12,125 nt of DNA, from positions 1 through 12,125 of the IMG/VR virus record IMGVR_UViG_2534681700_000010. One strand, 5' to 3'. This stretch comes from a virus. Taxonomy: Duplodnaviria > Heunggongvirae > Uroviricota > Caudoviricetes. Shown here in pieces: positions 1 to 12,125 of the stretch. The position numbers were made by a program, and so were the translations under genes. Numbering within the stretch: position 1 is the first letter of the stretch; every line of letters starts with the position of its first letter. The notes beneath the pieces were generated by a model. It made no database searches. It was given only the letters and a program-made list of their open reading frames with translations, and was not told the DNA's origin.

Positions 1-996
1 TTACCCTTCAAACTCTTGCTCCACAGAATCATTATCTGCGCATACAAAACCAAGCGCCTCCCCAAATCTCTCACGCGGAAAACCAGATTTGGGCACCCCC
101 ATAGAACTGTATGAACATCCCGGCATATTGGGTTTTTTGTCAAAGAGATCTGCAACCTGGCGGATCCATGTAGAATTTGGCCCGATCATTTTGACCAAAT
201 ACCAAATAATACATATCGCACTATAAAGACGCTCACTCGCAGGGGCATCTATTCTCAGTGAATTGAAGAAGGTTGTATTTGGTATTGGGATTCCAGCATG
301 TTTTCTATTCCAGATTCTGGAATGATGCGCACAACGATTACGCAAAAGATTCAGACATTGCAACCATTTGGTTAATGTTTGTTTATTGTCGATATTTAAT
401 CTTTTAATTATTTTGGCTTGTATACCACCATTCAGCATCGCGTAATATTTTGACATTTGGCCAAAATCCCAGGCTTCAACAACTACCCAAAAAGGGATCT
501 CCTTCCCCTGATTCAAATGCCAAAGAATGCACTCATCCCGGCTATCTTCCAGCTTTTTATCAAGCTTTTTCTGCCATTTTGTAAACGTGCTGGGTTTTCC
601 ATCATTAAGATAACGCTGGTTTATGTAGGATTCCTTTCTGTAAGCAAGCGGATCATATCGCCCTAATTCATGAGCGATAACGGAACGAATATGAATCTCA
701 ATACGTTCCAGGGCATCCATCATTAACATTCGAAGTTTTTTATCAAAAAGATAAAGATCGTATGCCTGCTCGAATGTAGTACCAGGGAGAAATTCATCGC
801 TCCTGAATGAAAGGCCTTCATCATTACAGCGAATGACGCGCGACGTATACCAAAACCCGGACAAGCGATAATAACCAACCTGAGACAGTTTCCTCATGGC
901 TCGCTTACAATCTCTGATTACCATGCCACGACTCAATAAAATCTCAAGCTGCTCTGAATATTCCTTATGTGGCTTTGCGGCAATCATACTCGTCAC
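1..996 (-). CDS. Abi_2-family (AbiD/AbiF-like) abortive-infection protein
   Basis: Complete ORF, stop TAA at 1-3. N-terminal EQLEILLSRGMVI...YYRLSGFWY and C-terminal LRNRCAHHSRIWNR match the conserved motifs of Abi_2 proteins as I recall them. The track start at 996 is GTG; the first ATG is at 987; neither has a strong SD. Hand counts of sampled 60-nt lines give about 25-40% GC, against about 50% in int. Confidence 0.75.
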   Translation of the reverse strand: MTSMIAAKPHKEYSEQLEILLSRGMVIRDCKRAMRKLSQVGYYRLSGFWYTSRVIRCNDEGLSFRSDEFLPGTTFEQAYDLYLFDKKLRMLMMDALERIEIHIRSVIAHELGRYDPLAYRKESYINQRYLNDGKPSTFTKWQKKLDKKLEDSRDECILWHLNQGKEIPFWVVVEAWDFGQMSKYYAMLNGGIQAKIIKRLNIDNKQTLTKWLQCLNLLRNRCAHHSRIWNRKHAGIPIPNTTFFNSLRIDAPASERLYSAICIIWYLVKMIGPNSTWIRQVADLFDKKPNMPGCSYSSMGVPKSGFPRERFGEALGFVCADNDSVEQEFEG

Positions 997-1224
997 ATGT
1001 TTTTGACAATAAAAGGCCCGACCGTGAGACTCACAAACAAAAAAGTTACGGAGAAACAGGGGATCGGGCTCGGTTGCCGCTAAATCTATTCAATTAAAAG
1101 AAGATGTCAATAGGGAAAACGAAAAAAAACAATGCTGATACTGTCATAATTTGAACAAAACCACTATATGTAGTTTTAGTTCATGAGGTTATTCGCTACC
1201 AGATGCGTCAATAGTTTTTGACTA

Positions 1225-1416
1225 TTAATAATCCCTCTTTTCCCATGTTTTTCCATCGGGGTCTTTGCGCTTGTCACTACCTGGTAACTGCTGGTGGCGT
1301 TCCTGTTGCAGCACAACGGAAACAGGCGCTGAACACCTGTTAATTTTGCTTGCTGGTTGTTTGATTCCGGCAATGCTGCGGATCATCTCCAGCAAATCGG
1401 CTTCGGTGATGGTCAT
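1225..1416 (-). CDS. Hypothetical small protein (63 aa)
   Basis: ATG at 1416 preceded by AAGGTG with a 6-nt spacer. No family recognised. Lies between the TTGACAC repeat array and the Abi gene. Confidence 0.5.
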   Translation of the reverse strand: MTITEADLLEMIRSIAGIKQPASKINRCSAPVSVVLQQERHQQLPGSDKRKDPDGKTWEKRDY

Positions 1417-1446
1417 GGTTTACACCTTAGGAAATCTTAGGGGGCT

Positions 1447-1712
1447 GGTTGACACTTTCCGGCTTAAGACCTTAACAAATCTTAACATCGCAGGTTGACA
1501 CACTTGACACTTTTTCGCGAAAAACCTTATCAAACCTTAGCATTTCTAAGCATGGCAACTTGACACTTTTCGCGATTTTTTCGGCTTTTTGACGTGGTAA
1601 ATCTGGCGAAAGGCCAGTAATGGCGGGGCTTACAGCGAGGTTGACACTTTTTTCGCGTTCAGAGTGTAAAGTGTCAACCTGGCAAGCTGCTCAACTTGAC
1701 ACTTTTTGATGT
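1447..1712. repeat. Array of TTGACAC-T(4-6)-CGCG-like repeats: five direct, one inverted, plus a degenerate half-copy
   Basis: Seen directly: TTGACAC at 1449, 1495 (half copy), 1504, 1560, 1641 and 1696 on the plus strand, and inverted GTGTCAA at 1671-1677. Four copies are followed by TTTT(T)(T)CGCG. Irregular spacing (46, 9, 56, 81, 55 bp). Interspersed AACCTTA / CTTAAC short repeats at 1468-1540. Sits immediately 3' of the HTH-protein gene (stop at 1712-1714). Confidence 0.6.
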
Positions 1713-2239
1713 CATTGATGGTCTGATTTTTCCCATTCAGCCAGGGCGTTTAGCCCGGCTTCACTCCATGATTCCAGTTCATCGGGATAATCACCTGCAA
1801 CATAGCAGAGTTCGCAACGCAGCATACGAATTGCCAGCCTGGCATTACCCCGCAAATTGTATTTTTCAAAGTAATGCTGCCCTTCATCATCCTCAAGGCA
1901 GATAGCACCATCATCAAGAAAGTGCACTTCCCAGCCTAATTCCCCGGCTGCATCCTGCACACGCTGCTGTATGTCATCGTCCGTTGCCGGCGCAGGAATT
2001 TTTCCGTCTCTGGCCTTAACTGCTTTCCAGAACTCGCCCCACGTCATTTCCAGCGTTCTTTCTGGCCACATTTCAGAAACTGTGTCTTTTCCCTGTGCTG
2101 CTGGGCTGTTCCGCTGTTCTGTCGCTTCCACATCGATTTTTTTACCGGACATGACCACTTCGCCTTTCTCGATCCAGTCGTAAACTGTCTGGCGGCTTAC
2201 GCCTTTGTGTTTGGCATATTCTGCCTTGCTCATCAGCAT
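1712..2239 (-). CDS. HTH DNA-binding protein (175 aa); possible packaging-redirection (Rpp / small-terminase-like) or regulatory protein
   Basis: N-terminus MSKAEYAKHKGVSRQTVYDWIEKGEV is a classic helix-turn-helix signature. GGTGAG SD-like sequence upstream of ATG 2239. Separated by 6 nt from the stop of the upstream ORF (operon). Functional assignment is inference. Confidence 0.7.
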   Translation of the reverse strand: MLMSKAEYAKHKGVSRQTVYDWIEKGEVVMSGKKIDVEATEQRNSPAAQGKDTVSEMWPERTLEMTWGEFWKAVKARDGKIPAPATDDDIQQRVQDAAGELGWEVHFLDDGAICLEDDEGQHYFEKYNLRGNARLAIRMLRCELCYVAGDYPDELESWSEAGLNALAEWEKSDHQ

Positions 2240-2245
2240 TATGAC

Positions 2246-2917
2246 TCACCCTTCTTTTTCCAGTTGAGCCAGCCGCCCGGATATTTCTTCCAGTTTTTCC
2301 AGGGCTGGCTTGCAGGCCGCATCAATAACGTCCCGGACCATTCCGGCAAGCTGTTCTTCTGCTGTCGGCGTTGTTACTTCCACGCCCGATGGTTTCCCGC
2401 CCTTATCCCAAACACCAAGCGGCACGAGCGCAACGTGATCGATAAGAAATGGCGTACCCTCAATAAAAAAATTGTCCTCGCCCATTACATCAGGAACTTC
2501 AGCCCCACCGGACGCACCACAAAACACAACCGACGGGCTGGTGGATACCTCCCCCCGTGCTTTCTGGATGTAATCGATGATTTCCTGCCCGTAAATCCGG
2601 CATACGCCCCACACCTCGTCACCGCGAATATACGGCAACATGACGGTGCCAATAATGCGCGACCGTTCGCCCACGTCTTCAAGGGTTTTGCTTTCGGGAT
2701 GGTCGATAATGACGGGTACTCCGGCGCAACGTTCCAGGAACTGCGGATTGAGATAAGTTTGCGGTGAACGCCAGACAAATTCTTTTTCTTCGGCGCGGTA
2801 GGCCATTCCGGTTCCTGTGATACGCAGGTTAACCAGCCACATGTTGGAAAACTGATAAGGCGACGGTAGCTGTCCGTCCCGAATCTGCTTCGCCGCCTCA
2901 ATTTCTGTTAAAAGCAT
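2246..2917 (-). CDS. Hypothetical protein (223 aa)
   Basis: Long ORF in the same orientation as its neighbours and tightly packed against the downstream HTH gene. ATG at 2917 has only a weak SD. No family recognised. Confidence 0.65.
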   Translation of the reverse strand: MLLTEIEAAKQIRDGQLPSPYQFSNMWLVNLRITGTGMAYRAEEKEFVWRSPQTYLNPQFLERCAGVPVIIDHPESKTLEDVGERSRIIGTVMLPYIRGDEVWGVCRIYGQEIIDYIQKARGEVSTSPSVVFCGASGGAEVPDVMGEDNFFIEGTPFLIDHVALVPLGVWDKGGKPSGVEVTTPTAEEQLAGMVRDVIDAACKPALEKLEEISGRLAQLEKEG

Positions 2918-2981
2918 AATGTTATCCGGTTATAAGCAATAAGCCCCGCCAAATCCGGCAGGGCTGAACTCAGCACGTTTT

Positions 2982-3566
2982 TCATGCCCCCGCGAGGCTT
3001 GCAACGTTAATTTTGACCAGGCGACGGGGAGGGATTTTGAAGGCGTTCAGCCAGACGTTCGGATCTCCCTGATATTCAGTAATACGACGACCGGCTTCAT
3101 CCATTCTTACGGTTTTACCCAAATGGCCCGGCGTGTTTTCCACGGCCCACTGAGCACTTTCCTGAGCAGCCTTGTAAATCTGATCTTCCAGCACCGCCAG
3201 CGTTGCAGAATCTGAAACGGAACGAATATCCACATCACTGAATTTTTTAGCCAGCTTCTGTGCGCCAATTAATGCACGTTTGCGGTAATCCATCGACTTT
3301 TCACCAGCAAACGGGGCCGGAGCGCGACGCCCCATATTGCTGTATGCGGAATCCGCTTTAGCCTGGGCTTCTGCCAGTGAGGATTCATCTTCGACTGACG
3401 CGACGATGTTTTGATTCGCGTTATCCTCGTCTGCTTTTGTGAAATCCTGTGCGGGGATCGCATTCAGAATTTCGATAATCTCCTGCGGAGTGCTGCCCTG
3501 CGACTCTGACAGAGCGTTAACCACCTCCATCAGTTTTAATCGCAAATCTTCTTTGCTTGCTGGCAT
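2982..3566 (-). CDS. Hypothetical acidic protein (194 aa from ATG 3566)
   Basis: ATG at 3566 preceded by AGGTGG with a 5-nt spacer; the track start at 3575 is GTG. Acidic, Ala/Glu-rich protein with no recognised domain. Confidence 0.7.
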   Translation of the reverse strand: MPASKEDLRLKLMEVVNALSESQGSTPQEIIEILNAIPAQDFTKADEDNANQNIVASVEDESSLAEAQAKADSAYSNMGRRAPAPFAGEKSMDYRKRALIGAQKLAKKFSDVDIRSVSDSATLAVLEDQIYKAAQESAQWAVENTPGHLGKTVRMDEAGRRITEYQGDPNVWLNAFKIPPRRLVKINVASLAGA

Positions 3567-3605
3567 TGTTACCACCTCTCTTTTTTCACCAAAAAATCAC
3601 GACCA

Positions 3606-3779
3606 TCAGGCCGGACGTTCTACGGGATAAAGCGCCCGCTGCATTAAACGCCGGGCGACCTCATGAATGCTCGGAGCAATCCCCAGCGGAGAATTGCGGC
3701 GTTCCTCGTCCTGGATGCGCTGTAATGCTTCAATCTGATCACGAGCGAGTAAAACGGGTTTCACGCTGGCTTTTCTCAT
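3606..3779 (-). CDS. Small protein (57 aa from ATG 3779), possible DNA-binding
   Basis: AGGAGA sits 7 nt upstream of ATG 3779; the track start at 3803 is TTG. First gene of the leftward operon after the terminator cluster. The DNA-binding fold is a guess from the KPVLLARDQIEALQRI pattern. Confidence 0.5.
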   Translation of the reverse strand: MRKASVKPVLLARDQIEALQRIQDEERRNSPLGIAPSIHEVARRLMQRALYPVERPA

Positions 3780-3903
3780 AGTCATATCTCCTGAACAAAA
3801 CAATGATTATGATTGCACAAACTGAAATGACGATCTACATCATTGCAATTTATGAAACAATAACGCATGATGATCGCGTTCTTCCCATTGACTTCAATCA
3901 CCT

Positions 3904-3944
3904 GCAAAAATAAAACCCGCAACACTTCTGGCTGCGGGTTTTTT
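3904..3944. terminator. Bidirectional intrinsic-terminator-like hairpin
   Basis: AACCCGCA (3914-3921) pairs with TGCGGGTT (3933-3940) around an 11-nt loop. Flanked by TTTTTT on the plus strand (3939-3944) and by an A-rich run 3905-3915, which reads TTTTATTTTT on the minus strand. Confidence 0.55.
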
Positions 3945-3952
3945 ACTGGCAC

Positions 3953-3976
3953 AAAAAAGCCGGGAAAAATCCCGGC
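3953..3976 (-). terminator. Intrinsic terminator downstream of the PerC-like gene
   Basis: GCCGGGA (3959-3965) pairs with TCCCGGC (3970-3976) around a 4-nt loop, followed on the minus strand by a T6 run (plus-strand A6 at 3953-3958). Starts 6 nt after the stop at 3982-3984. Confidence 0.6.
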
Positions 3977-3981
3977 CTCCG

Positions 3982-4269
3982 TCACTGACTGCAATTTTTC
4001 GATCCAGGGTATTTCCTGAATGCCTTACCATTGGGCTGATGTAATCCCATCCCGGCATGTGCCCGGCTGATGGTTTCGCGCATCTCCCCGAAATTATCCT
4101 GCCTTGCTGGTGGGCGTGCTGCCTTGCGGATACATTCCGCGCGACGTTTTGCCGCCTGTTCCCGTGCCTTGTCATCATTCGCCAGCATGATGACCTCAGC
4201 CCACCGCGCCGCCGCTCTCCGGTACAGACCACGCGCTTCCAGTGCTTCCGCTTTGCTGTCGTGAATCAT
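3982..4269 (-). CDS. PerC/Pch-like small transcriptional regulator (95 aa), tentative family call
   Basis: ATG at 4269 overlaps the upstream stop (ATGA). The AEALEARGLYRRAAARWAEV motif resembles the E-x-x-G-L-W-R-R-A-A-x-R-W core I recall for PerC-family proteins. The family call is from memory only. Confidence 0.5.
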   Translation of the reverse strand: MIHDSKAEALEARGLYRRAAARWAEVIMLANDDKAREQAAKRRAECIRKAARPPARQDNFGEMRETISRAHAGMGLHQPNGKAFRKYPGSKNCSQ

Positions 4270-4808
4270 GCGCCTGTTTTCTCCTTTGCTGCCCGGCGCT
4301 GACGTTTGCGCTTCTCATTCAGCGCCACCAGCCGCGTTTCTGCGTCCTGTTGTTCCTGTGGTGTCACCTCGCCGCACGGCTGGCCTTTCAGGTCGTAACG
4401 TGCACCACCAGCCATTAAGGCGCGGTAATAGCGCGGAGACTGCGCATAAGATGCCAGCGTCGCACGTAATGCCCCTGGCCCGAATGCCAGCCCCCTGACG
4501 GCGAGATCCTGCATCAGGTCGTCGAATATCCCCACCTTAAGCGGCTTCGGTGCTTCCCGGCTGAATAATTCAGGCCACAACTCAGTGAGGCGGTTAACGC
4601 GCCTGCGGTTTTTGCGCTGGCGCTTGGTCATATGCCGCCACGGTGTCGCCCCTGTGGGCTTCTGCTGCGCTTTCTGGTTACCGGGCATCACTTTATGCGC
4701 CGACGTGGTTTTATCCTGCTCCTGTGCCGCCTGCGTCGTTTTCTGCGGCGTGCCATAAATGCCTTTCGGTTTTCTGTTAATGGTCAGCTTAGTCATGCTT
4801 TGCCCCAT
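4266..4808 (-). CDS. ProQ/FinO-domain protein (RNA-chaperone-like), 180 aa
   Basis: PLKVGIFDDL...LRATLASYAQSPRYYRALMAGGARYDLKGQPCGEV aligns by eye to the FinO-like domain of E. coli ProQ (PLKIGIFQDL...[35 protein letters not shown]). Basic, low-complexity N-terminus. Start ATG at 4808 or 4796; both have weak SDs. Confidence 0.7.
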   Translation of the reverse strand: MGQSMTKLTINRKPKGIYGTPQKTTQAAQEQDKTTSAHKVMPGNQKAQQKPTGATPWRHMTKRQRKNRRRVNRLTELWPELFSREAPKPLKVGIFDDLMQDLAVRGLAFGPGALRATLASYAQSPRYYRALMAGGARYDLKGQPCGEVTPQEQQDAETRLVALNEKRKRQRRAAKEKTGA

Positions 4809-4814
4809 CGTTAC

Positions 4815-5152
4815 AACTGTCTACCAACTGTCTACCGATATAATTGATTGATTTATTTAATGTTATTAACTCATAACAAAAAAACAATCTGCAAACTGTC
4901 TACTAACTGTCTACCGCATTAATACATTGATAATTAATGATTTTTTCAAAGTGGTAGACAGAGTAGACAGTTAAAAGAGAAATTTTAAAAATGAACCCTT
5001 AACTATCTGTTTTTATATACCCCCCGTGGTTTAGGAATATAGAAACAACTGTCTACTCTCTACCACATTTAAAAATATCTATATAATTCAATGACTTAGC
5101 CGGTAGATAGTTGGTAGAGGGTTAAGTATTACTGTCTACCAACCGTCTACCT
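4815..5152. repeat. Putative replication origin: AACTGTCTACC iterons in both orientations around AT-rich tracts
   Basis: Direct copies at 4815-4825, 4826-4836, 4894-4904, 4905-4915, 5047-5057, 5131-5140 and 5141-5152. Inverted copies (GGTAGACAG / AGTAGACAG) at 4953-4961 and 4962-4970. Degenerate copies at 5001-5010 and 5102-5119. Very AT-rich spacers. Lies immediately 3' of the primase/helicase gene (ends 5179). Confidence 0.7.
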
Positions 5153-5178
5153 TTACGTTTCAGCTTATAAATTTCGTA

Positions 5179-6984
5179 TTATGTTCTGTCGTTAATCCCT
5201 GTTGCTGCTGGCAACCAGCCATCAGCATCATCATCTAACAGAACATTTGTTATCACTCGCCCTTTATCTGGGCCTTTAGTGCATTTAGCCCGCTTATACT
5301 CCTTTCCGTATTCCGCCATAGCACCCGGCATATCAGTGCCAAAGCGTTTCAGTGATACTGGTTTTCCCAGGCCATGCGCTGACATATAGGCTAAATAAGC
5401 ATGATACAGATATCGTCTCGGGCTAAATGGCACTATTCCCGCATTGCCCACCATCATTCCTTCACATTTAACCAACGACATCAGATAGCCGCAAAAGTCC
5501 ACCAGTGAATCACCCTCGCGTTTTATCACCAGAGCCTCTTCTGATTTCTGCTGCTCATATAACAGACGTCTGGCTTCATCCTGGTCAGAAAAACGAGTAA
5601 GCAGGTGGCGAATCACTACCGCCAGTTCGCATTCTATCTTTTCCGCCAGCATGGGATCGCGTTCGTTCTCCGGTACGACCTCAGAGAAATTAAATATCAC
5701 CCTACGACGCGAGATCCCCCCGCTTCGGTCACTGAATGACATGGCGTTATTGTTTACCGCAAGCACTACTGCCGGAATACGTGTGGAGTAGGGGGCTTTA
5801 TGTTTCGGGTCAATTGCCACCTTGTCGCCGCCAGTAATTGCCTTAATTCCTGCACCATCGCCAGCGTAGCGAGTCATATCCGGCATGATAATCAGCGAAA
5901 AGCCAACTACTAACGCGCGTTCCCTTGCGTCTTCCAGCGCCTTCATGCTTGCCGATACTGTGTTGGCCTTACCCGCCAGCATGGTACAAATCTCAGCCAT
6001 CACACTTTTACCGCTTCCGCCTGGGCCTGTTACCTCAAGGAATAACTGCCAGTCGTACCGGTTCGCCAGTACCATGAATAATGCCGCCAGTACGCGATCA
6101 GCTTTACGATCATTATCTGCCACCGAACGACGCAGCCACTTCCAGAAATTCGGCGCATGTGTTGCCAGCGTTTCCCCCTCTGCTGGCGGGCTGAACGGTA
6201 ATTCACTGGCATTTAACAACCAGTCATTTTTGTTATGCTCCCGAAAATTTCCCGTCCGGGTATCAAATACCCCGTTACTGAATCCAATAAGATTCCTGTC
6301 TGCCCCGCCCATAACAGGCAGGCTCAATTTCATTGTGTCTACGGCAAATTTAATGGCGTTTTGCGAATAACTGATTCCAGCATCAATAAAAATCTTCGCC
6401 ATAGACCGCTGGAGTTCCTTATCAGATACAGGCACCCAGACAATTCCGTTGTAATGGTGAACTACATCAGAATCATCATTTATAGCCAGTGCTCTTCCAT
6501 AATATTCAAGTAACACTTCCCCTCTCTGGCTGGCTCCCATCTGATTTAGTGCTGGCCTGGGTAGGTCAATATTTTTTGTGGTTAATTTCATCGCTGAAAC
6601 TTCCCCACTCTCTGCCTGTTCGCGGATCCGTTGCAGGTAATCGCGCCAGTTCTCCGGCTCCCGGTCGGTGATACCTTTGTATAATTTCGCCTCCTGTACG
6701 CCAGCCAGCGCCAGTTTTTCAGCGATAGCGTTGATCTGGATTGGCTCTATCTCCCCCGCAAGATAGACACGTGCAAAGCGGCGTTTCTCGTCAATAATGC
6801 GGATATTCACCAGGTCTGCCAGTTGCTTCGGCCCCAGGTAAACAGGTGGCACGTTATCGCCGTGTTTTCGTCCTTCGCTTTCAATCCAGTGTTGAGCATG
6901 GGCGTAAGCATCCGTCCCGGCAAAAATGATTACCTCGGTGAATTTATCCTTCGGCTGATATTTTAAATTCGGTGCGTTTTTCAC
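5179..6984 (-). CDS. Primase/helicase replication protein (P4-alpha / D5-like, SF3 helicase P-loop), 601 aa
   Basis: Walker A GPGGSGKS present, with a typical phage/plasmid primase C-terminal architecture. GTG start at 6984 overlaps the upstream stop (GTGA) and is preceded by GGGAGGT with a 5-nt spacer. The N-terminal region has no obvious toprim motif by eye. Confidence 0.9.
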   Translation of the reverse strand: MKNAPNLKYQPKDKFTEVIIFAGTDAYAHAQHWIESEGRKHGDNVPPVYLGPKQLADLVNIRIIDEKRRFARVYLAGEIEPIQINAIAEKLALAGVQEAKLYKGITDREPENWRDYLQRIREQAESGEVSAMKLTTKNIDLPRPALNQMGASQRGEVLLEYYGRALAINDDSDVVHHYNGIVWVPVSDKELQRSMAKIFIDAGISYSQNAIKFAVDTMKLSLPVMGGADRNLIGFSNGVFDTRTGNFREHNKNDWLLNASELPFSPPAEGETLATHAPNFWKWLRRSVADNDRKADRVLAALFMVLANRYDWQLFLEVTGPGGSGKSVMAEICTMLAGKANTVSASMKALEDARERALVVGFSLIIMPDMTRYAGDGAGIKAITGGDKVAIDPKHKAPYSTRIPAVVLAVNNNAMSFSDRSGGISRRRVIFNFSEVVPENERDPMLAEKIECELAVVIRHLLTRFSDQDEARRLLYEQQKSEEALVIKREGDSLVDFCGYLMSLVKCEGMMVGNAGIVPFSPRRYLYHAYLAYMSAHGLGKPVSLKRFGTDMPGAMAEYGKEYKRAKCTKGPDKGRVITNVLLDDDADGWLPAATGINDRT

Positions 6985-7271
6985 TTCTTACCTCCCGCAA
7001 CCAACATTGCCCGGATTTTTTTAATATTCGTGGCTGCACGTCTTGCCACTGCCTGTTGTTTGTTTTCAACCAGAATAAAATCACGCTCAAACTGACGGCG
7101 CGGCATTACGCAGTCATATTCGTAAGCCTCACGGCGGTAGGTGATATTGCCTGGCGTAACGTGACGAATAACCACTCGTCCCCCACGTCTGGTGTCGCGG
7201 TAAATATCGCCGTGTCTGATTTCAGGTCGAGCGGGGCCGCTGGCAGTAAAGCCAGAATTTTTCTTTTTCAT
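6981..7271 (-). CDS. Hypothetical basic protein (96 aa)
   Basis: ATG at 7271 with AGGAG upstream. Stop overlaps the primase GTG start. No family recognised. Confidence 0.6.
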   Translation of the reverse strand: MKKKNSGFTASGPARPEIRHGDIYRDTRRGGRVVIRHVTPGNITYRREAYEYDCVMPRRQFERDFILVENKQQAVARRAATNIKKIRAMLVAGGKK

Positions 7272-7277
7272 GGTTTT

Positions 7278-7643
7278 TTACTCCTGCGTCTTGCTCTGAA
7301 TTACCTGATAACCGCAACTGGTCAGCAATTCGATAAATTCCGGCAGTGTTCCGAAACAGCAATTATCACGCAGCCGTTCGCGGGATACTTCAACGCCGTT
7401 TTCGTAGTGACTCACCATGCGTCCGGTAAAATGCAGATCATCATCGTGATGGCACGTTGACGGCTTAATCAGTCGCGCACGTTCTGCCAGCTCCAGCAAT
7501 GCTTCAACACTTCCGGCAATTGCACCATCCGGCAGGTGGTAATTACGCACTATGCGCCCGTTCTCCACATGGACCAGTAGCTGCCCGGTAAATTTCTCGT
7601 CAAACTGAATGCGGTTAAGGTCGGTAAGTGACAGGTTAATCAT
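7278..7643 (-). CDS. Hypothetical protein (121 aa)
   Basis: ATG at 7643 preceded by AGGAGG with a 6-nt spacer. Start overlaps the stop of the upstream small ORF (ATGATTAA). Confidence 0.65.
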   Translation of the reverse strand: MINLSLTDLNRIQFDEKFTGQLLVHVENGRIVRNYHLPDGAIAGSVEALLELAERARLIKPSTCHHDDDLHFTGRMVSHYENGVEVSRERLRDNCCFGTLPEFIELLTSCGYQVIQSKTQE

Positions 7644-7839
7644 GGCGTACCTCCTGACGAATACGGGCGGCGAATACCATCACGCAGCCATCAGGAGATT
7701 GCTGGCGTGCTTCCTGTTCGCTGGTGGCCTCGATGTGAATCACGCGCGGTTGTGCCGTGCTCAGAGCGATAAAACGCCAGATGTATTTATTCAGGTTGTG
7801 CGAGTCCCGCCCTTGCGGGTGTGTGGTATGATTTCTCAT
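7636..7839 (-). CDS. Hypothetical small protein (67 aa), first gene of the primase operon
   Basis: Internal ATG at 7839 of the long track ORF, preceded by GAGGT. Its stop overlaps the next start. Upstream of this point the same reading frame has antisense-like composition. Confidence 0.5.
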   Translation of the reverse strand: MRNHTTHPQGRDSHNLNKYIWRFIALSTAQPRVIHIEATSEQEARQQSPDGCVMVFAARIRQEVRHD

Positions 7840-7905
7840 AGCTACCTCGATAATCTTGCTATCGTTGGTGGTTAGAAGCCCTGCGAGTGGTAACGACACT
7901 TGCGG

Positions 7906-7992
7906 GGCTTTGCCTTTAAGGTGCAAGTCACCTTTGAGGGTTATGCTACTTTTAGGTGACTTGCACTTCAAGCCTTTTTTTATTTTTTTTTC
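7906..7992 (+). promoter_or_regulatory. Large hairpin (perfect 12-bp inverted repeat inside an extended stem) followed by a T7-A-T9 tract
   Basis: GTGCAAGTCACC (7921-7932) and GGTGACTTGCAC (7955-7966) are perfect reverse complements. Outer GGCTT (7906-7910) pairs with AAGCC (7970-7974). T-tract at 7975-7991. Sits between the divergent RHH-like gene and the primase operon start. Confidence 0.5.
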
Positions 7993-8032
7993 TACGTATA
8001 CTGAACGCCACCTAACAGTAAGGAGGCCAGTA

Positions 8033-8212
8033 ATGCCAACGGGTACAACCAACAACAAATCACAACAAAAAACGGCTAGAATCCCTCTAGAAGTTTTAAG
8101 CGAAATGAATTTGGTCAAAGAGGAAAACGAAACAGACGCGCAGTTTATCGTTACAGCCATGCGTGGCGAGATCAAACGCCGCCAGCGCCGCAAGGCCAAA
8201 GAACAGGAGTAA
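8033..8212 (+). CDS. Small ribbon-helix-helix-like DNA-binding protein (59 aa); candidate repressor
   Basis: TAAGGAGG ends 6 nt before ATG 8033. TATACT (-10-like) at 7997-8002. Protein is hydrophilic with common E. coli codons; TARIPLEVLSEMNLV looks like an RHH beta-strand plus helix. Conflicts with the 402-aa minus-strand track ORF, which I judge antisense here. Confidence 0.55.
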   Translation: MPTGTTNNKSQQKTARIPLEVLSEMNLVKEENETDAQFIVTAMRGEIKRRQRRKAKEQE

Positions 8213-8269
8213 CCATCACCAGCGCCGTGGTGTGAGGAACTACGGTGCATCGTTTTACAGGGCAGCGCC

Positions 8270-8449
8270 ATGACCAACAAAGAATCAACCAAAACACCAT
8301 CACCAACTCGTAAGAGACGACGCAAAAATATAGCGCATGAACATGAATCAGAAAGATTCGCACCTTGTTCGTTTGCTCTTGAGAAATTCCTTAAAGAGCA
8401 CAGGAAAAAGCTCTCGTTGCAAACCTTGGAACGAACCAAATCTGACTGA
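8270..8449 (+). CDS. Possible small basic protein (59 aa), not in the ORF track
   Basis: ATG 8270 to TGA 8447-8449, translated by hand as MTNKESTKTPSPTRKRRRKNIAHEHESERFAPCSFALEKFLKEHRKKLSLQTLERTKSD. Weak SD and several rare codons (AGA, CGA, ATA, AGG). Confidence 0.3.
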   Translation: MTNKESTKTPSPTRKRRRKNIAHEHESERFAPCSFALEKFLKEHRKKLSLQTLERTKSD

Positions 8450-8653
8450 TCACATTGCCCACCAGCCGCAAATGTGGCATTGTTGGTGATGCGTTCAAGT
8501 ATGTAGCTTTTCCACTGGCGGCTCTCTGCGGTCGCCTTTGTTTTATCCAGAACGAAATCAGACATCAGATTGATCAGCACCTGGCGACCTGACAAAATCG
8601 CATCAGTCGCGCCACCAGCAAAATTTTTTGCTTTCCGGACAGCGTGGCCAACG

Positions 8654-8672
8654 ATATTTTGCAGCAAAATAT
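8654..8672. promoter_or_regulatory. Perfect 19-bp palindrome ATATTTTGC-A-GCAAAATAT
   Basis: Read directly from the sequence: 9-bp arms around a single central base. Lies in the unresolved region between the antirepressor gene and the small plus-strand ORFs. Confidence 0.35.
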
Positions 8673-8836
8673 TCTGCATTTCTGGCGTGCTGTGGCGACG
8701 GTGATCAGCGCCTTCACATTGAACGAACTTGTCGCTAAAATTCACCCACATAGCAAACATCGCGGTGCTGTAGGTAATTCGTTCACAAAGGCGCTCCGGC
8801 AACGGGGCGCTTTCTCTTTTTGTAACGGTCAGAGCG

Positions 8837-9637
8837 TTACACATGGCTGTTTTCCTCCATGCGACGGGCTAACCAACGCTGCGAAAGACGAATTAATTCA
8901 GCCTTCCGCTGGTGGTAGTCCTGGCCTAACTCAATCAGCGTGATATTGCTCTGCTCAAGGTAAGAAAGGTGCTCAAGCTGCAACGTGCTCATGTGGTCGC
9001 GTGGTTCGCCTGTAATGCCGTTCGCCAGTGCCCACTGTTTTGCAGTCATGCCACCCAGCACGATACGCGCCAGCATGTTCGCTTCCGTGGTGTAGTGGTG
9101 CTGGAGTGTGTTTTTACCCAGTTCAGCCCGGTACGCCTCCAGCGCGGCACACATTGGCTTAAAGTAGCTGGCAACTGTGATACGGGCTTTCAGTTCCCGG
9201 CGTAACGCTGCGGAACGAACAGGCGCAACCTTGTGTAGCTCCTCCTCGCATTTGATAAAGTACTGGCGAACGGCGCGGCCCTGTTCGGTACGTTCGACCA
9301 TCGCCAGTTCTTTCGCCATGTTCACTGTGATGATGTACTCAAGAGCGGTTTGCTGGCGAGATTTTGCGCTCACCGGATCGGGTCGGCTCAAATATTCAAC
9401 AACCTCATAATCCACGCCTTCCGTGAACCCGTATTCTTCAATGCGCCCCTTGATCCACGAACGGAAAACGCGCCCTACACCTAACGCCTTATGTAACGCT
9501 CTGGCGCTAACAATAGTGGTTTCACTCCCGCCAATAACGCCGGAAATAATCGGGATAATTTCGCCGAAATTTTGCAGATTCTGGTTTTCAGGCCGAACGA
9601 AGCCCCGCCCCTGTACGGGCGTTTTTGGAAATTTCAT
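8837..9637 (-). CDS. Phage antirepressor, AntA-domain protein (266 aa)
   Basis: ITVNMAKELAMVERTEQGRAVRQYFIKCEE and the preceding IPIISGVIGGSETTIVSARALHKALGV match AntA/AntB-type N-terminal antirepressor domains. ATG 9637 preceded by AGGAG with a 5-nt spacer. Confidence 0.85.
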   Translation of the reverse strand: MKFPKTPVQGRGFVRPENQNLQNFGEIIPIISGVIGGSETTIVSARALHKALGVGRVFRSWIKGRIEEYGFTEGVDYEVVEYLSRPDPVSAKSRQQTALEYIITVNMAKELAMVERTEQGRAVRQYFIKCEEELHKVAPVRSAALRRELKARITVASYFKPMCAALEAYRAELGKNTLQHHYTTEANMLARIVLGGMTAKQWALANGITGEPRDHMSTLQLEHLSYLEQSNITLIELGQDYHQRKAELIRLSQRWLARRMEENSHV

Positions 9638-9714
9638 AAAAACTCCTGCTATCGAATTAAGTTACTTTTATTTGCTGGTGGATAGCTGGGGGCAATAGCC
9701 CCGTAGCCATTTAA

Positions 9715-9912
9715 TCAGGTAGCTGTTCCGCGTGATTCCGCAATACGCTGATTAATCCACTCGTCAATTTCACTCTCAACGAAAGCAATAGCTCGCGAGC
9801 CAATTTTTACAGGTTTAGGAAAACGCCCTTGGGCAATGAGTTTATAGATCCATGCCCTTCCATACCCTGTACGGCGCATGGTTTCTGGCATACGAATTAA
9901 AGATTGTGACAT
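9715..9912 (-). CDS. alpA: AlpA-family transcriptional regulator / excisionase-like protein (65 aa from ATG 9912)
   Basis: MRRTGYGRAWIYKLIAQGRFPKPVKIGSRAIAFVESEIDEWI matches the AlpA motif pattern. GGGAGA lies 8 nt upstream of ATG 9912. The track's longer version (start 9981) is probably an N-terminal over-extension. Confidence 0.85.
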   Translation of the reverse strand: MSQSLIRMPETMRRTGYGRAWIYKLIAQGRFPKPVKIGSRAIAFVESEIDEWINQRIAESRGTAT

Positions 9913-10026
9913 GATAATCGTCTCCCGTTGTTTATTGATGCCTACGGGAGACATTGAAGCAGGTAAGACATTGGATATCACCGCAATTGCGGTGAATGAT
10001 ACCGCAATTGCGGTATAGGACTACAA

Positions 10027-10782
10027 CTACGATTTAATTGATTTATTGGCTTCAGCAAACTTTGCTTCCAGCGTTCTTGAACTCATCCCCGGCTTACCTT
10101 CAAAATGCCCCAATAAATTACTAATAATAGAGCTTTGATTTTCGAATACAGATTGCTTAATACCAGCAGGTGAACGCCCTAACATTAGAAAAAGCAACCC
10201 TCCAATAATGTTTAAATATGTTGTTTCAGAACGTTGGTCAATGTTTTGCACGGAGTTATCAACCATTCGTCGTAGTGAATCACGTTCCCCTTGTAATTCG
10301 GAAATTTCATTTTTCTGCTGTTGAAAAGTCTTCATAGCATTATCTAAGCGAATATTAAGACGTTTGTTTTCAGCCTGAAGAGTTTGATATGCCTCGACTG
10401 TAATTCCAGCATGTAACTGCTGCTCAACAGCATCAAAAAGGAAAGCTGGTTTTTGGTTGGGATAGTTTTTTGACATCCATGATTTCAGATCGGAATGACG
10501 GACGGTTAAACGGTGCTTAGCAACCTGTTCTCCAGGTTGAACAGTTTTACCATCACGACCATAAGGAATTTCACAATTATGGATTGCATCTAAAATTTTC
10601 TCAGCATTAACACGCAAGCAAGGCCATTGAGGGAACATTCCAACGCTAGGTAAAACTCCATCTCCCACTCGCTCCAATATTAAAACTTCATGAGCAATTA
10701 AATTACACCAACGTAGCGCCGCTTCAATTGGAGTGTAATATGCCTTTTCAAGAGAACTACAGCTTTTTGAATTGTAAGTCAC
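10027..10782 (-). CDS. Hypothetical protein (251 aa) with central coiled-coil and one hydrophobic helix; AT-rich accessory gene
   Basis: GTG start at 10782 preceded by GAGGT; the first in-frame ATG is codon 49. Heptad-like segment LQAENKRLNIRLDNAMKTFQQQKNEISELQGERDSLRRMV followed by YLNIIGGLLFLMLG. Hand counts on two sampled 60-nt lines give about 33% and 42% GC, against about 52% in int. Confidence 0.7.
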   Translation of the reverse strand: MTYNSKSCSSLEKAYYTPIEAALRWCNLIAHEVLILERVGDGVLPSVGMFPQWPCLRVNAEKILDAIHNCEIPYGRDGKTVQPGEQVAKHRLTVRHSDLKSWMSKNYPNQKPAFLFDAVEQQLHAGITVEAYQTLQAENKRLNIRLDNAMKTFQQQKNEISELQGERDSLRRMVDNSVQNIDQRSETTYLNIIGGLLFLMLGRSPAGIKQSVFENQSSIISNLLGHFEGKPGMSSRTLEAKFAEANKSIKS

Positions 10783-10910
10783 TCTGTGCTACCTCGCACC
10801 CTCTGTAAAAGTGGCTGTGCCAGCCCGCAGAGGTGTACGGGTTTTCAGGAGCGACCCTAGACACAGCCTTTTCTTAATCGCTCAAAGTCTACTACTGTAT
10901 ACTCAACCAG

Positions 10911-12125
10911 TCACCCGCATTTTCCGAACTCACCATGCACCACATTTCCGCCATGCTCGAGCGAATCCATATAGTCGGCATACCACTGGAGCATCTCCCG
11001 GCGACCATCCAGATATTGCGCATGGTTGTATGTGCCACGAATTGAGTTTTTATCGACGTGTGCGAGCTGCGTCTCTATCCACGCGGTGTTATAGCCCTGC
11101 TCATGCAAAATGGTGCTCATGGTGTGCCGGAATCCATGACCAGTAACGCGCCCGGCATAGCCGATACGACGAATGAGCACATTCATCGCCATTTCACTCA
11201 TTGGCTTACTGTGGTGAATACGACCGGGGAAAATAAACTGATACTGGCCTGTCATGTTTTTTAACTGCTCCAGTATTTTTATCGCCTGTTCTGGTAATGG
11301 CACACAATGCGGACGGCGCATCTTCATTCGTTCTTTAGGCACTTCCCACAAACGATTATCAAAATCGATCTCCTGCCATTCTGCCTGCCGTAATTCCCCG
11401 GGTCTGACACCTGTCAGAATTAATAGCCGCATTGCCAGTTTGACGATCTGGCTTCCGGTGTACGTATTAAAAACGCGGAAAAATTCCGGCAGTTCGTCGG
11501 CCTTCAAATAGGCGTAATGCTCTTTTTTATGTGGAGCAAATGCGCTCACCAGGTCAGGGGCTGGATTATATTCGGCGCGTCCGGTGATGATTGCGTACCG
11601 GAACACCTCGCCGCATCGCTGGCGAACCTTACGCAATTTTTCAGTCGCACCACGGTCATTAAGACGGGAAAGAACCGCCAGCAATTCCATCGGCTTAATT
11701 TCTGCGATCGGCCTACCGCCAATGTACGGAAAAACATCTTTTTCAAACGTCTCGATCATTTCCTCGGCGTATGACGATGACCACCTGTCGATCCGCTTTT
11801 CGTACCATTCGCGAGCAATACCCTCAAAAGTATTGCCAAATTTGCTCGCCTGTTCTCGCTTTTGGGCTTTTCTGGCCTCACTTGGATTTATACCACCAGC
11901 AAGAAGCCTTTTAGCCTCATCCCTTGCCGCCCTGGCATCAGACAGAGACACATCAGGGTACACACCCAACGACAACATTTTGGGCTTTCCTGCAAACCTG
12001 TAGCGCAGTCGCCACCCTTTCGAACCGTTCGGCTCAATGAGCAACGAAAGCCCGTTACCGTCATTGAGTGTATAAGCCTTTTCTTTCGGCTTCGCGCGCC
12101 TGATGGCAAGGTCTGAAAGCAGCAT
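10911..12125 (-). CDS. int: Tyrosine site-specific integrase, P4/IntA family
   Basis: Close by-eye match to E. coli IntA-type integrases: N-terminal LSDLAIRRAKPKEKAY...DGNGLSLLI arm-binding region and C-terminal HGFRHT...RGTYNHAQY catalytic region. The ATG falls on the last three bases of the window, so the true start may be slightly upstream and outside it. Confidence 0.95.
   Translation of the reverse strand: MLLSDLAIRRAKPKEKAYTLNDGNGLSLLIEPNGSKGWRLRYRFAGKPKMLSLGVYPDVSLSDARAARDEAKRLLAGGINPSEARKAQKREQASKFGNTFEGIAREWYEKRIDRWSSSYAEEMIETFEKDVFPYIGGRPIAEIKPMELLAVLSRLNDRGATEKLRKVRQRCGEVFRYAIITGRAEYNPAPDLVSAFAPHKKEHYAYLKADELPEFFRVFNTYTGSQIVKLAMRLLILTGVRPGELRQAEWQEIDFDNRLWEVPKERMKMRRPHCVPLPEQAIKILEQLKNMTGQYQFIFPGRIHHSKPMSEMAMNVLIRRIGYAGRVTGHGFRHTMSTILHEQGYNTAWIETQLAHVDKNSIRGTYNHAQYLDGRREMLQWYADYMDSLEHGGNVVHGEFGKCG

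Follow-up and report, generated by a model that had tools for sequence, protein, structure and literature searches.

A predicted three-layer control cassette, with a candidate ribbon-helix-helix repressor and a cis-antisense RNA, at the head of the primase operon of a PICI/P4-type phage satellite

The DNA analysed here (hereafter the window) comprises 12,125 nucleotides, positions 1 to 12,125 of the Caudoviricetes record IMGVR_UViG_2534681700_000010 in IMG/VR, and is a phage satellite of the phage-inducible chromosomal island (PICI)/P4 type. Its interval 7840–8212 is probably the immunity and control cassette of the satellite's early (replication) operon and is built in three layers: a small rightward gene of the YlcI/YnfO family, predicted to encode a ribbon-helix-helix (RHH) repressor, with its operator-like sites; a predicted cis-antisense RNA of about 80 nt, which covers the translation start of a kil-like gene at the head of the leftward operon; and a long eta-like reading frame, which runs leftward through the whole cassette and ends as that same kil-like gene. 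The observation itself is real and lies far beyond chance, and the anatomy, its conservation, the covariation and strand assignment of the RNA, the co-variation of operators and protein, the Kil homology and the dual-coding constraint are all computational observations. From them we infer DNA binding, repression, synthesis and effect of the antisense RNA, Rho termination and an override. A preliminary description of this DNA regarded the interval as a divergent control region. This holds as far as control elements are concerned, but the interval is more than an intergenic spacer, being contained in a stop-free minus-strand frame that is conserved. That description missed both the homology of the first leftward gene to P4 Kil and the fact that this gene ends a 402-codon stop-free frame antisense to the repressor gene, as in P4 eta.

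The cassette was compared across about 180 related loci (designated L with a number). The small protein has 114 homologues in Enterobacterales, from which 20 loci of distinct species were fetched, including Cedecea, Citrobacter, Dickeya, Pectobacterium, Morganella, Proteus, Xenorhabdus, Sodalis and Yersinia. A further 80 loci came from viral contigs, and 80 were anchored on the Icd-like protein by means of a single protein query. One architecture upstream of the small gene is common to all relatives. From left to right it consists of the start of the first leftward gene, its Shine-Dalgarno (SD) sequence, a small stem-loop, the motif GGTTAGA, a long hairpin, site 1, a -10 element, site 2, CTTGA, a T-rich stretch, TATACT, site 3, and the SD and ATG of the small gene.

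The first gene of the leftward operon (7636–7839, minus strand, 67 residues, SD GAGG at 7845–7848) matches the NCBIfam family NF033153, phage_ICD_like (3.8e-20). Profile and sequence comparisons identify it as a homologue of P4 Kil. The family profile aligns with P4 Kil in hhalign with a probability of 97.9% (E = 3e-13), and the family member in L085 is 53% identical to P4 Kil in blastp (E = 4e-16); compared directly, P4 Kil and the window protein are just 28% identical (E = 0.13), and an alignment of diverse Icd-like proteins contains no conserved block. The end of the kil-like gene and the start of the next share 8 nt. About 80 nt of the leader of the leftward transcript (from promoter P_L), among them the GAGG (7845–7848) and the AUG, are complementary to the predicted antisense RNA. 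By pairing with the leader, the ribosome-binding site (RBS) and the AUG, this RNA would keep the kil-like gene from being translated. The start and stop codons of the downstream genes overlap, so that such a block would reduce expression of the primase operon as well; these genes would be shut off by the loss of translational coupling and by Rho-dependent polarity. The preliminary description had proposed countertranscript-style control of replication. The predicted RNA does lie over the 5' end of the operon, but its direct target would be the kil-like translation start and not the primase, and control of replication may follow from there.

The same geometry could be that of a type I toxin-antitoxin pair, in which the RNA acts mainly as an antitoxin against a leaky, toxic Kil/Icd-like peptide and serves host protection or addiction, while the RHH protein is just a local autoregulator. 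Over-expression of P4 Kil kills cells (summarised in PMC10111431), and the window protein is its homologue. The arrangement is also that of SymR/SymE (PMC1891008), where the antisense promoter lies just inside the target, in its first codons, and the RNA extends over the 5' untranslated region (UTR), the SD or RBS and the AUG of a potentially toxic small protein. SymR/SymE has no sequence relation to the window, however, and it pairs the RNA with LexA where the window has an RHH protein. The window target, moreover, heads a long operon that leads to the primase through overlapping start and stop codons, so that a block of its translation should hit the replication genes too, and the operator-like sites bracket the promoter of this whole operon. 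Biochemically, the toxin-antitoxin mechanism is the same as that of the control cassette and differs in purpose alone; as the principal purpose it appears unlikely.

The third layer of the control cassette, the eta-like frame, has a precedent in P4, where kil is the end of a longer open reading frame (ORF), eta (Forti et al. 1999 J Bacteriol 181:5225, via the summary in PMC10111431). In the window, the corresponding frame occupies 402 codons on the minus strand (7636–8844). Its ATG overlaps the stop codon of the upstream gene antA (ATGTGTAA), and the motif GGAGGA lies 8 nt upstream of it. Both small plus-strand genes and the entire control region lie antisense within the frame, and its last part is Kil. 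Over the 343 codons ahead of the Kil-like ATG it contains no stop, as compared with 16 and 25 stops in the other two minus-strand frames. In 96 distinct loci the median stop-free length is 222 codons versus 6 and 1 in the other frames, and a length of at least 100 codons is reached in 70 of the 96 versus none or one. All but one of 78 distinct ylcI genes (77/78) lack a stop in the eta antisense frame, where synonymous resampling leads to an expectation of 32%. The phase between the two start codons is the same in 62 of 83 loci. Two loci, L096 and L043, have the N-terminus of the upstream AntA/Bro-type gene joined to the eta-like frame. In P4, translation of eta on transcripts from the upstream late promoter prevents premature termination and makes these transcripts insensitive to immunity (summarised in PMC10111431). 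By analogy with P4 eta/kil, transcription arriving from alpA–antA in the window would override the cassette, with ribosomes on the eta-like frame carrying it through.

The long minus-strand frame might instead be a mere shadow of plus-strand coding and base composition, untranslated and with no role. Its translation is not protein-like and is unconserved beyond the part antisense to ylcI, and the frame is broken in 26 of the 96 loci. A shadow does not explain the medians of 222 versus 6 and 1, which include non-coding promoter DNA, nor the outcome of the synonymous test on ylcI (77/78). It is also opposed by the GGAGGA and ATG placed over the antA stop, by the AntA/Bro-type fusions in L096 and L043, and by the homologous precedent of P4 eta/kil. 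Taken together, this makes a shadow rather improbable.

Several peculiarities of the eta-like frame were observed in individual loci. L096 contains a single minus-strand ORF of 466 residues, whose N-terminus is shared with the AntA/Bro-type gene and which continues through the ylcI antisense segment, a truncated icd, a Phage_ASH region and a complete Kil-like end. In the window, the T7-A-T9 tract of the control region (7975–7991) reads KKIKK in the eta-like frame. The length of this tract varies in close relatives (T8-A-T10 in L026, T7-A-T8 in L031); the frame breaks near the tract in L026 and further upstream in L031. The tract could be a slippage-prone frame switch, or the differences could be sequencing errors. 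In L001 (NZ_CM143726.1, 4035–4511) the Prokaryotic Genome Annotation Pipeline (PGAP) lists an 'Icd-like protein' of 158 residues on the strand opposite ylcI, whose start it overlaps. This gene is a fragment of the eta-like frame, and the annotation of the nested arrangement is therefore inconsistent.

The repressor candidate is a protein of 59 residues encoded on the plus strand (8033–8212, ATG at 8033, stop codon at 8210–8212). The AAGGAGG at 8020–8026 that precedes its ATG bears out the near-consensus SD described earlier. The protein matches the NCBIfam hidden Markov model NF041551 (YlcI_YnfO_N) over residues 9–50 with 62.9 bits against a cut-off of 30 (E = 2e-17), and orthologues carry the same YlcI/YnfO name in RefSeq. 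It gave no Pfam match at threshold and no match in a PDB sequence search; its top sub-threshold Pfam matches are RHH families. In the AlphaFold2 model (predicted local distance difference test, pLDDT, of 80.8), residues 1–18 are extended and residues 19–28 and 35–58 form helices; the model is a monomer, in which the RHH β-strand cannot form. The family consensus has a G-E-S/T ahead of helix 2, where RHH proteins have a turn of the type G-x-S/T/N. Compared with Arc at the profile level, the family reaches E = 7e-4, yet a probability of just 26%; residues 11–17 match the position of the DNA-reading strand of Arc. With no Pfam or PDB sequence matches, and with weak fold and profile matches, an RHH (Arc/CopG-like) fold is the best reading of the protein and not a proven one. 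The RHH-like nature claimed for it previously is supported to this extent, although the fold evidence is weak.

The repressor gene is followed by a terminator-like hairpin on the plus strand (8222–8248, from the consensus scan), which separates it from a second ORF of 59 residues on the same strand (8270–8449; phrog_21027, E = 3e-15) that starts 57 nt past the ylcI stop. The position of this second ORF, antisense within the eta-like frame, is kept in 32 of 102 loci across differing ylcI classes.

The region between the two start codons contains three operator-like sites in register with two divergent promoters. The inverted repeat noted previously, given as 12 bp, is present and is in fact a perfect repeat of 13 bp (GTGCAAGTCACCT at 7921–7933 and AGGTGACTTGCAC at 7954–7966). 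The 12-mer GGTGACTTGCAC occurs exactly twice in the window, with no further copy at up to two mismatches, and none of 300 Markov shuffles of the 373-nt interval yields a perfect inverted repeat longer than 11 bp. Conservation of the inverted repeat in related elements had been set beforehand as a test, and the inverted arrangement did not pass it: most relatives carry the two sites as direct repeats. The arms are therefore best described as two predicted binding sites and not as a hairpin. A single hairpin made of sites 1 and 2 with the T-run as its terminator was ruled out on the same grounds, and also because the tract lies between the -35 regions of the two divergent promoters. The proposal that the inverted repeat is the operator of the small gene survives in part: its arms are two of three operator-like sites, and their core co-varies with the small protein and not with the primase, but their inverted arrangement is not conserved.

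O1 (GGTGCAAGTCACC, 7920–7932) is an inverted exact copy of the core of O2 and covers approximately +4 to +16 of the leftward transcript. O2 (GGTGACTTGCACT, 7955–7967), whose core is specific to the class of the YlcI β-strand, fills the spacer of P_L, between a -10 element TAGCAT (7943–7948, minus strand) and a -35 element TTGAAG (7966–7971, minus strand), the latter kept in relatives as TTGAAG, TTGACG or TTGAGG. Transcription from P_L would start near 7935 and give a leader of roughly 96 nt. The T7-A-T9 tract lies between the divergent promoters, as an A-tract upstream of the P_L -35. The promoter of the repressor gene, P_R, has a -10 element TATACT (7997–8002, plus strand) 30 nt before the ATG, and O3 (ACTGAACGCCACC, 8000–8012) overlaps its end. 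In 84 distinct control regions, TATACT is found at the P_R position in most, and 82 have the minus-strand pattern TTGAnn, 17 or 18 nt, TAnnnT, with O2 in its spacer and O1 at or a little past the start point. The register of the sites is fixed, with 45 bp from O2 to O3 and 31 nt from O3 to the ATG in all classes, and 22–24 or 35–36 bp from O1 to O2. According to the proposed mechanism, the YlcI/YnfO protein, made from P_R, would bind these 13-bp GGTG-N5-CAC sites. Occupation of O2 in the P_L spacer and of O1 past the start point would block transcription of the kil-like, DUF4222 and primase genes, and occupation of O3 at the end of the P_R -10 would let the repressor limit its own synthesis.

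The general form of the sites is (G/A)GTG-N5-CAC, with a constant frame and a centre that is class-specific (TGACTTGCAC in the window; TGAATCGCAC, TGGACTCCAC, TGGCACCCAC and TGTGGCCCAC among the other classes). The centre maps one-to-one onto residues 11–17 of the YlcI protein in about 15 classes, with heptads that include QQLNARF, QKLQARA, QKMSARV, QALKARV and QQKTARI; O3 is identical to O2 in many classes. The heptad would set the site preference, QQKTARI selecting GGTGACTTGCAC and QQLNARF selecting GTGAATCGCAC. A given left-hand module (first gene plus hairpin) pairs with up to three classes, and one class is found with many modules. In 63 pairs of loci the primases are at least 95% identical and the operator classes differ, which indicates that the sites move along with the small gene, independently of the replication proteins.

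The same pairs bear on whether the 13-bp sites are iterons or origin elements recognised by the primase/replicase, or sites of some other island protein. The sites do adjoin the replication operon, and the P4 origins carry short repeats according to their annotation. Replication iterons are nevertheless ruled out by the primase comparison, for sites that served the primase would not change class among the 63 pairs while their cores track the YlcI β-strand. The sites are furthermore in register with the -35 and -10 elements of two promoters, and where another RHH-looking gene is present the repeats are others too. A function of the sites for any protein other than the YlcI one is, overall, very unlikely. 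The loci with other repeats are L120, L124, L162, L174, L177 and L181, six Icd-anchored loci in which the antisense-RNA element is kept and the ylcI slot holds unrelated small RHH-looking genes (for example MRLPEEFRAQLEEAAKADGDTSLATWIKRILRKEL), each with repeats of its own. This looks like non-orthologous swapping of the repressor cassette.

The antisense RNA is predicted, from covariation and fold, to extend from about 7838 to about 7919 on the plus strand, with presumed ends. It consists of a 5' stem-loop (7839–7874) that contains the anti-SD sequence CCUC, a conserved GGUUAGA junction, a terminator stem (7875–7911) and a U-rich tail (7912–7919). The stem has 15 bp, including two G.U pairs, between 7875–7889 and 7897–7911, and is followed by TGCCTTTAAG. 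The plus-strand RNA of 83 nt (7838–7920) folds with -40.4 kcal/mol (z = -6.5, none of 200 shuffles as good), and its minus-strand copy with -22.7 kcal/mol (z = -2.6). RNAalifold applied to 71 distinct sequences gives the 5' stem-loop and the long terminal hairpin on the plus strand. In these sequences, 97.9% of the cells are paired and 16 of the 21 pairs show compensatory changes (none of 500 shuffles as good); controls slid along the alignment are 33–48% paired. Cells with G.U pairs number 261 when the structure is read on the plus strand and 3 when it is read on the minus strand, and this asymmetry assigns the structure to the plus strand. The tail reads UGCCUUUAAG, and across the 71 sequences the mean number of T in the 10 nt past the stem is 4.5 on the plus strand versus 1.2 on the minus strand.

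Upstream of the stem-loop, inside codons 3–5 of the kil/icd-like gene, lies a putative antisense promoter with the extended -10 element TGgTATGAT (7824–7832, hexamer 7827–7832, plus strand). The hexamer TAnnnT is present in 52 of 54 distinct upstream sequences. Its distance to helix 1 is constant at 8 nt in every N-terminal length class, also where the start codon has shifted by two codons. The base opposite A(-11) is always a third-position T of the kil/icd-like gene, in the codon CAT, TCT, TGT, TTT, AGT, GAT or TAT. The codon varies and yet always ends in T, which indicates that the -10 element is maintained at a synonymous site; the probability of such an invariant T by chance we take to be about 1 in 100, a rough estimate from typical E. 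coli codon usage and not a computed value. A covariance model of the element, R1, scores 85.4 bits at 7832–7924, has no other match in the window, and finds the element in all 79 of 79 Icd-anchored loci, each time in the same place and antisense to the gene. L127 has two antisense-RNA elements (673–764 and 1418–1508, minus strand), 745 nt apart. These alignments, with the plus-strand structure and the conserved -10 hexamer 8 nt upstream, are best read as a short RNA encoded in cis, antisense to the 5' end of the leftward operon, as the preliminary description had anticipated. The RNA would be transcribed rightward from the -10 in the first kil-like codons and would stop at its own terminator before O1.

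Alternatively, the hairpin could serve the minus-strand mRNA, in whose leader it would be an attenuator, a stabilising element or a site for RNase III, with no separate antisense RNA. It does lie within the 5' UTR of the P_L transcript, as had been pointed out, and the minus strand forms a weaker version of it. The G.U counts, the difference of the two folds, the U-rich tail confined to the plus strand and the -10 element at a fixed 8 nt all speak for the opposite strand and make a role in the leader alone highly improbable. Least credible is a function of the plus-strand structure as single-stranded DNA, a priming or packaging signal: the tolerance of DNA hairpins for G.T pairs would account for the strand asymmetry and the primase operon is adjacent, but a -10 at fixed distance and a T-rich tail fit a transcription unit, and the complementarity spans exactly the RBS and AUG of the first gene.

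Since the first gene is Icd-like, the leader was expected to carry the RNAs of P4/P1-type immunity, namely the CI RNA (C4, RF01695) and seqA (isrK, RF01394). Neither has an Rfam match in the window at gathering score, and a search of 7500–9000 for C4 and isrK found none even at E up to 10. In P4, used as a positive control, C4 scores 74.9 bits and isrK 60.8 bits; P4 in turn has no match to R1. C4, isrK and c4-a1b1 were observed in L096 (2033–2699, minus strand) and L025 (2383–2470, minus strand), downstream of the first Icd-like gene and with the YlcI/antisense module present.

A number of points weigh against the proposed cassette. The hairpin at 7875–7911 has an only moderately U-rich tail, and the strict consensus scan did not call it a terminator, because the T-run is interrupted. 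The earlier terminator assignment is favoured by the covariation of the stem and the U-richer plus-strand tail, and not by the scan. The antisense promoter has no recognisable -35, and inspection of the sequence reveals no clear -35 for P_R. The scan called no sigma-70 promoter in the interval, P_L included, which has 8 of 12 consensus matches. No Rfam family covers the antisense RNA, and a literature search, which included full text and the supplements of a paper on Hfq cross-linking and immunoprecipitation (CLIP) in enterohaemorrhagic E. coli (EHEC), found no description of it. O3 in the window is degenerate, with four mismatches in the 10-nt core. The co-variation of operators and protein may be due in part to their tight physical linkage. 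The breaks in the eta-like frame, and its lack of a protein-like or conserved translation outside the parts constrained by other features, belong here as well, as does the coexistence of C4/isrK-type RNAs downstream in two relatives, from which it follows that the two types of immunity are not strict alternatives and can be stacked.

The closest known counterpart of the cassette is P4, whose immunity region comprises the promoter P_LE, the CI RNA with seqA/seqC, nested kil and eta genes, and Rho-dependent termination. Its kil occupies a syntenic position, in the order alpA/vis homologue, eta ending in kil, further genes and primase. An RNA aimed at the kil translation start is known from P4 and predicted here, and in both a longer in-frame ORF, coupled to the gene before it, has its start on the upstream side of the internal promoter. 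The effectors differ. In P4, the effector is the CI RNA (C4), which acts with seqA (isrK) at the equivalent place on the same strand, is processed and relies on short complementarities; both are absent from the window, where the predicted RNA comes from the opposite strand and has its own promoter and terminator. The window also has an added divergent repressor gene with operators, located antisense inside eta.

Combinations of a small repressor with a countertranscript are known from plasmids, where pMV158/pLS1 uses the RHH repressor CopG together with the countertranscript RNA II, and R1 uses CopB together with CopA. In pMV158, and by prediction in the window, a replication operon is controlled twice, at its promoter by a small RHH repressor and at translation initiation by a short antisense RNA that carries a terminator hairpin, and the 13-bp pseudo-symmetric operator element in the window resembles that of CopG. 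However, copG is co-transcribed with repB, whereas the repressor gene of the window is divergent and antisense inside another ORF. The RNA of the window would directly target a kil-like gene and not an initiator, and the element is an integrated satellite and not a plasmid; the likeness is one of design. The immI region of P22 has the RHH repressors Mnt and Arc and the sar antisense RNA directed against the ant RBS. The proposed switch would work similarly to this one, with its RHH repressors and antisense RNA, but the target genes and organisation of immI are different, and the homology of the window protein to Arc is below the confident level. The immI region of P1 and P7 comprises the c4 RNA, icd and ant. 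Here the first gene is of the Icd family too, and translation controlled by a small RNA gates the genes that follow; the difference is that C4 lies on the same strand, upstream of icd, and the C4 family of Rfam is absent from the window.

The large genes of the window are all on the minus strand. Right to left, they encode the integrase (10911–12125), a protein of 251 residues located between the integrase and AlpA, AlpA (9715–9981), an AntA-family protein (8837–9637), the Icd-like/Kil-like protein, a protein of 121 residues, a DUF4222 protein and a D5-type primase (5179–6984). The 121-residue product of the second leftward gene has no detectable homology to P4 epsilon. The late genes left of the primase resemble, in Pfam and PHROG, those of an Ogr/Delta-type activator, a head protease, a small terminase and an Abi protein. 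The last of these, a partial ORF at the late end of the element (1–996, minus strand), belongs to the abortive-infection family phrog_2158 (E = 8e-59) and is likely an anti-phage cargo gene. The int-alpA RNA (RF02996, 49.8 bits, 10799–10867, minus strand) is the sole Rfam family that reaches its gathering score in the window. It sits between the integrase and the 251-residue ORF, and the motif is also found in L015, L020 and L062.

The assignment of the window to PICI/P4-type satellites follows from this gene content: int, alpA and primase are co-oriented, the late genes are of the helper-exploiting kind, and a full set of virion genes is absent. The gene order is identical to that of E. coli islands in RefSeq that lie beside a tRNA gene. 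Counterparts of P4 sid, psu and delta were not found as such in the window, which is possibly only part of the element. The layout matches that described for Gram-negative PICIs, with integration, Bro, replication and late zones (PMC10111431), and the control region (7840–8212) falls between the Bro zone and the replication zone. In papers on Gram-negative PICIs (PMC13612085; PMC10111431), AlpA is presented as an activator or master regulator, and YlcI/YnfO and Icd-like proteins are treated merely as accessory or 'prophage-associated'.

The region of the antisense-RNA element is found in 1405 of 5426 complete E. coli genomes, about a quarter, with up to six copies per genome; many O157:H7 strains are among the E. 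coli carriers, and the element also occurs across Enterobacterales from Yersinia to Xenorhabdus. Among the matches listed for these 1405 genomes, none has a non-coding RNA annotated at the element. The ylcI after which the family is named belongs to the lambdoid prophage DLP12 of E. coli K-12 (L184, record positions 580251–580445), where it is flanked by ybcW and by the small-terminase homologue nohD. It has no annotated Icd-like neighbour, which suggests that the control module is specific to the satellite branch of the family.

The silencing of Gram-negative PICI-type satellites has been poorly defined to date. It is possible, though put forward here only tentatively, that many enterobacterial satellites share an unrecognised three-layer switch. 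Such a switch would comprise a swappable YlcI-like cassette, with at least 15 specificities, that defines immunity groups, and a new and widespread family of cis-antisense RNAs directed against a kil-like gene. Both would be encoded antisense inside a translated eta-like ORF that is selected mainly to be stop-free, and ribosomes brought in by helper-induced alpA transcription would override both. If this is true, the repressor gene is truly dual-coding and constrained on both strands. The uncharacterised YlcI/YnfO family gains a candidate function, that of an operator-specific RHH repressor, and the antisense element is predicted to represent a new family of small RNAs. The comparison also shows the kil/eta design of P4 to be a general one that can host different effectors, the CI RNA in P4 and an RHH protein plus antisense RNA here, and the shuffling of specificity classes independently of the replication genes suggests the existence of immunity groups among co-resident satellites.

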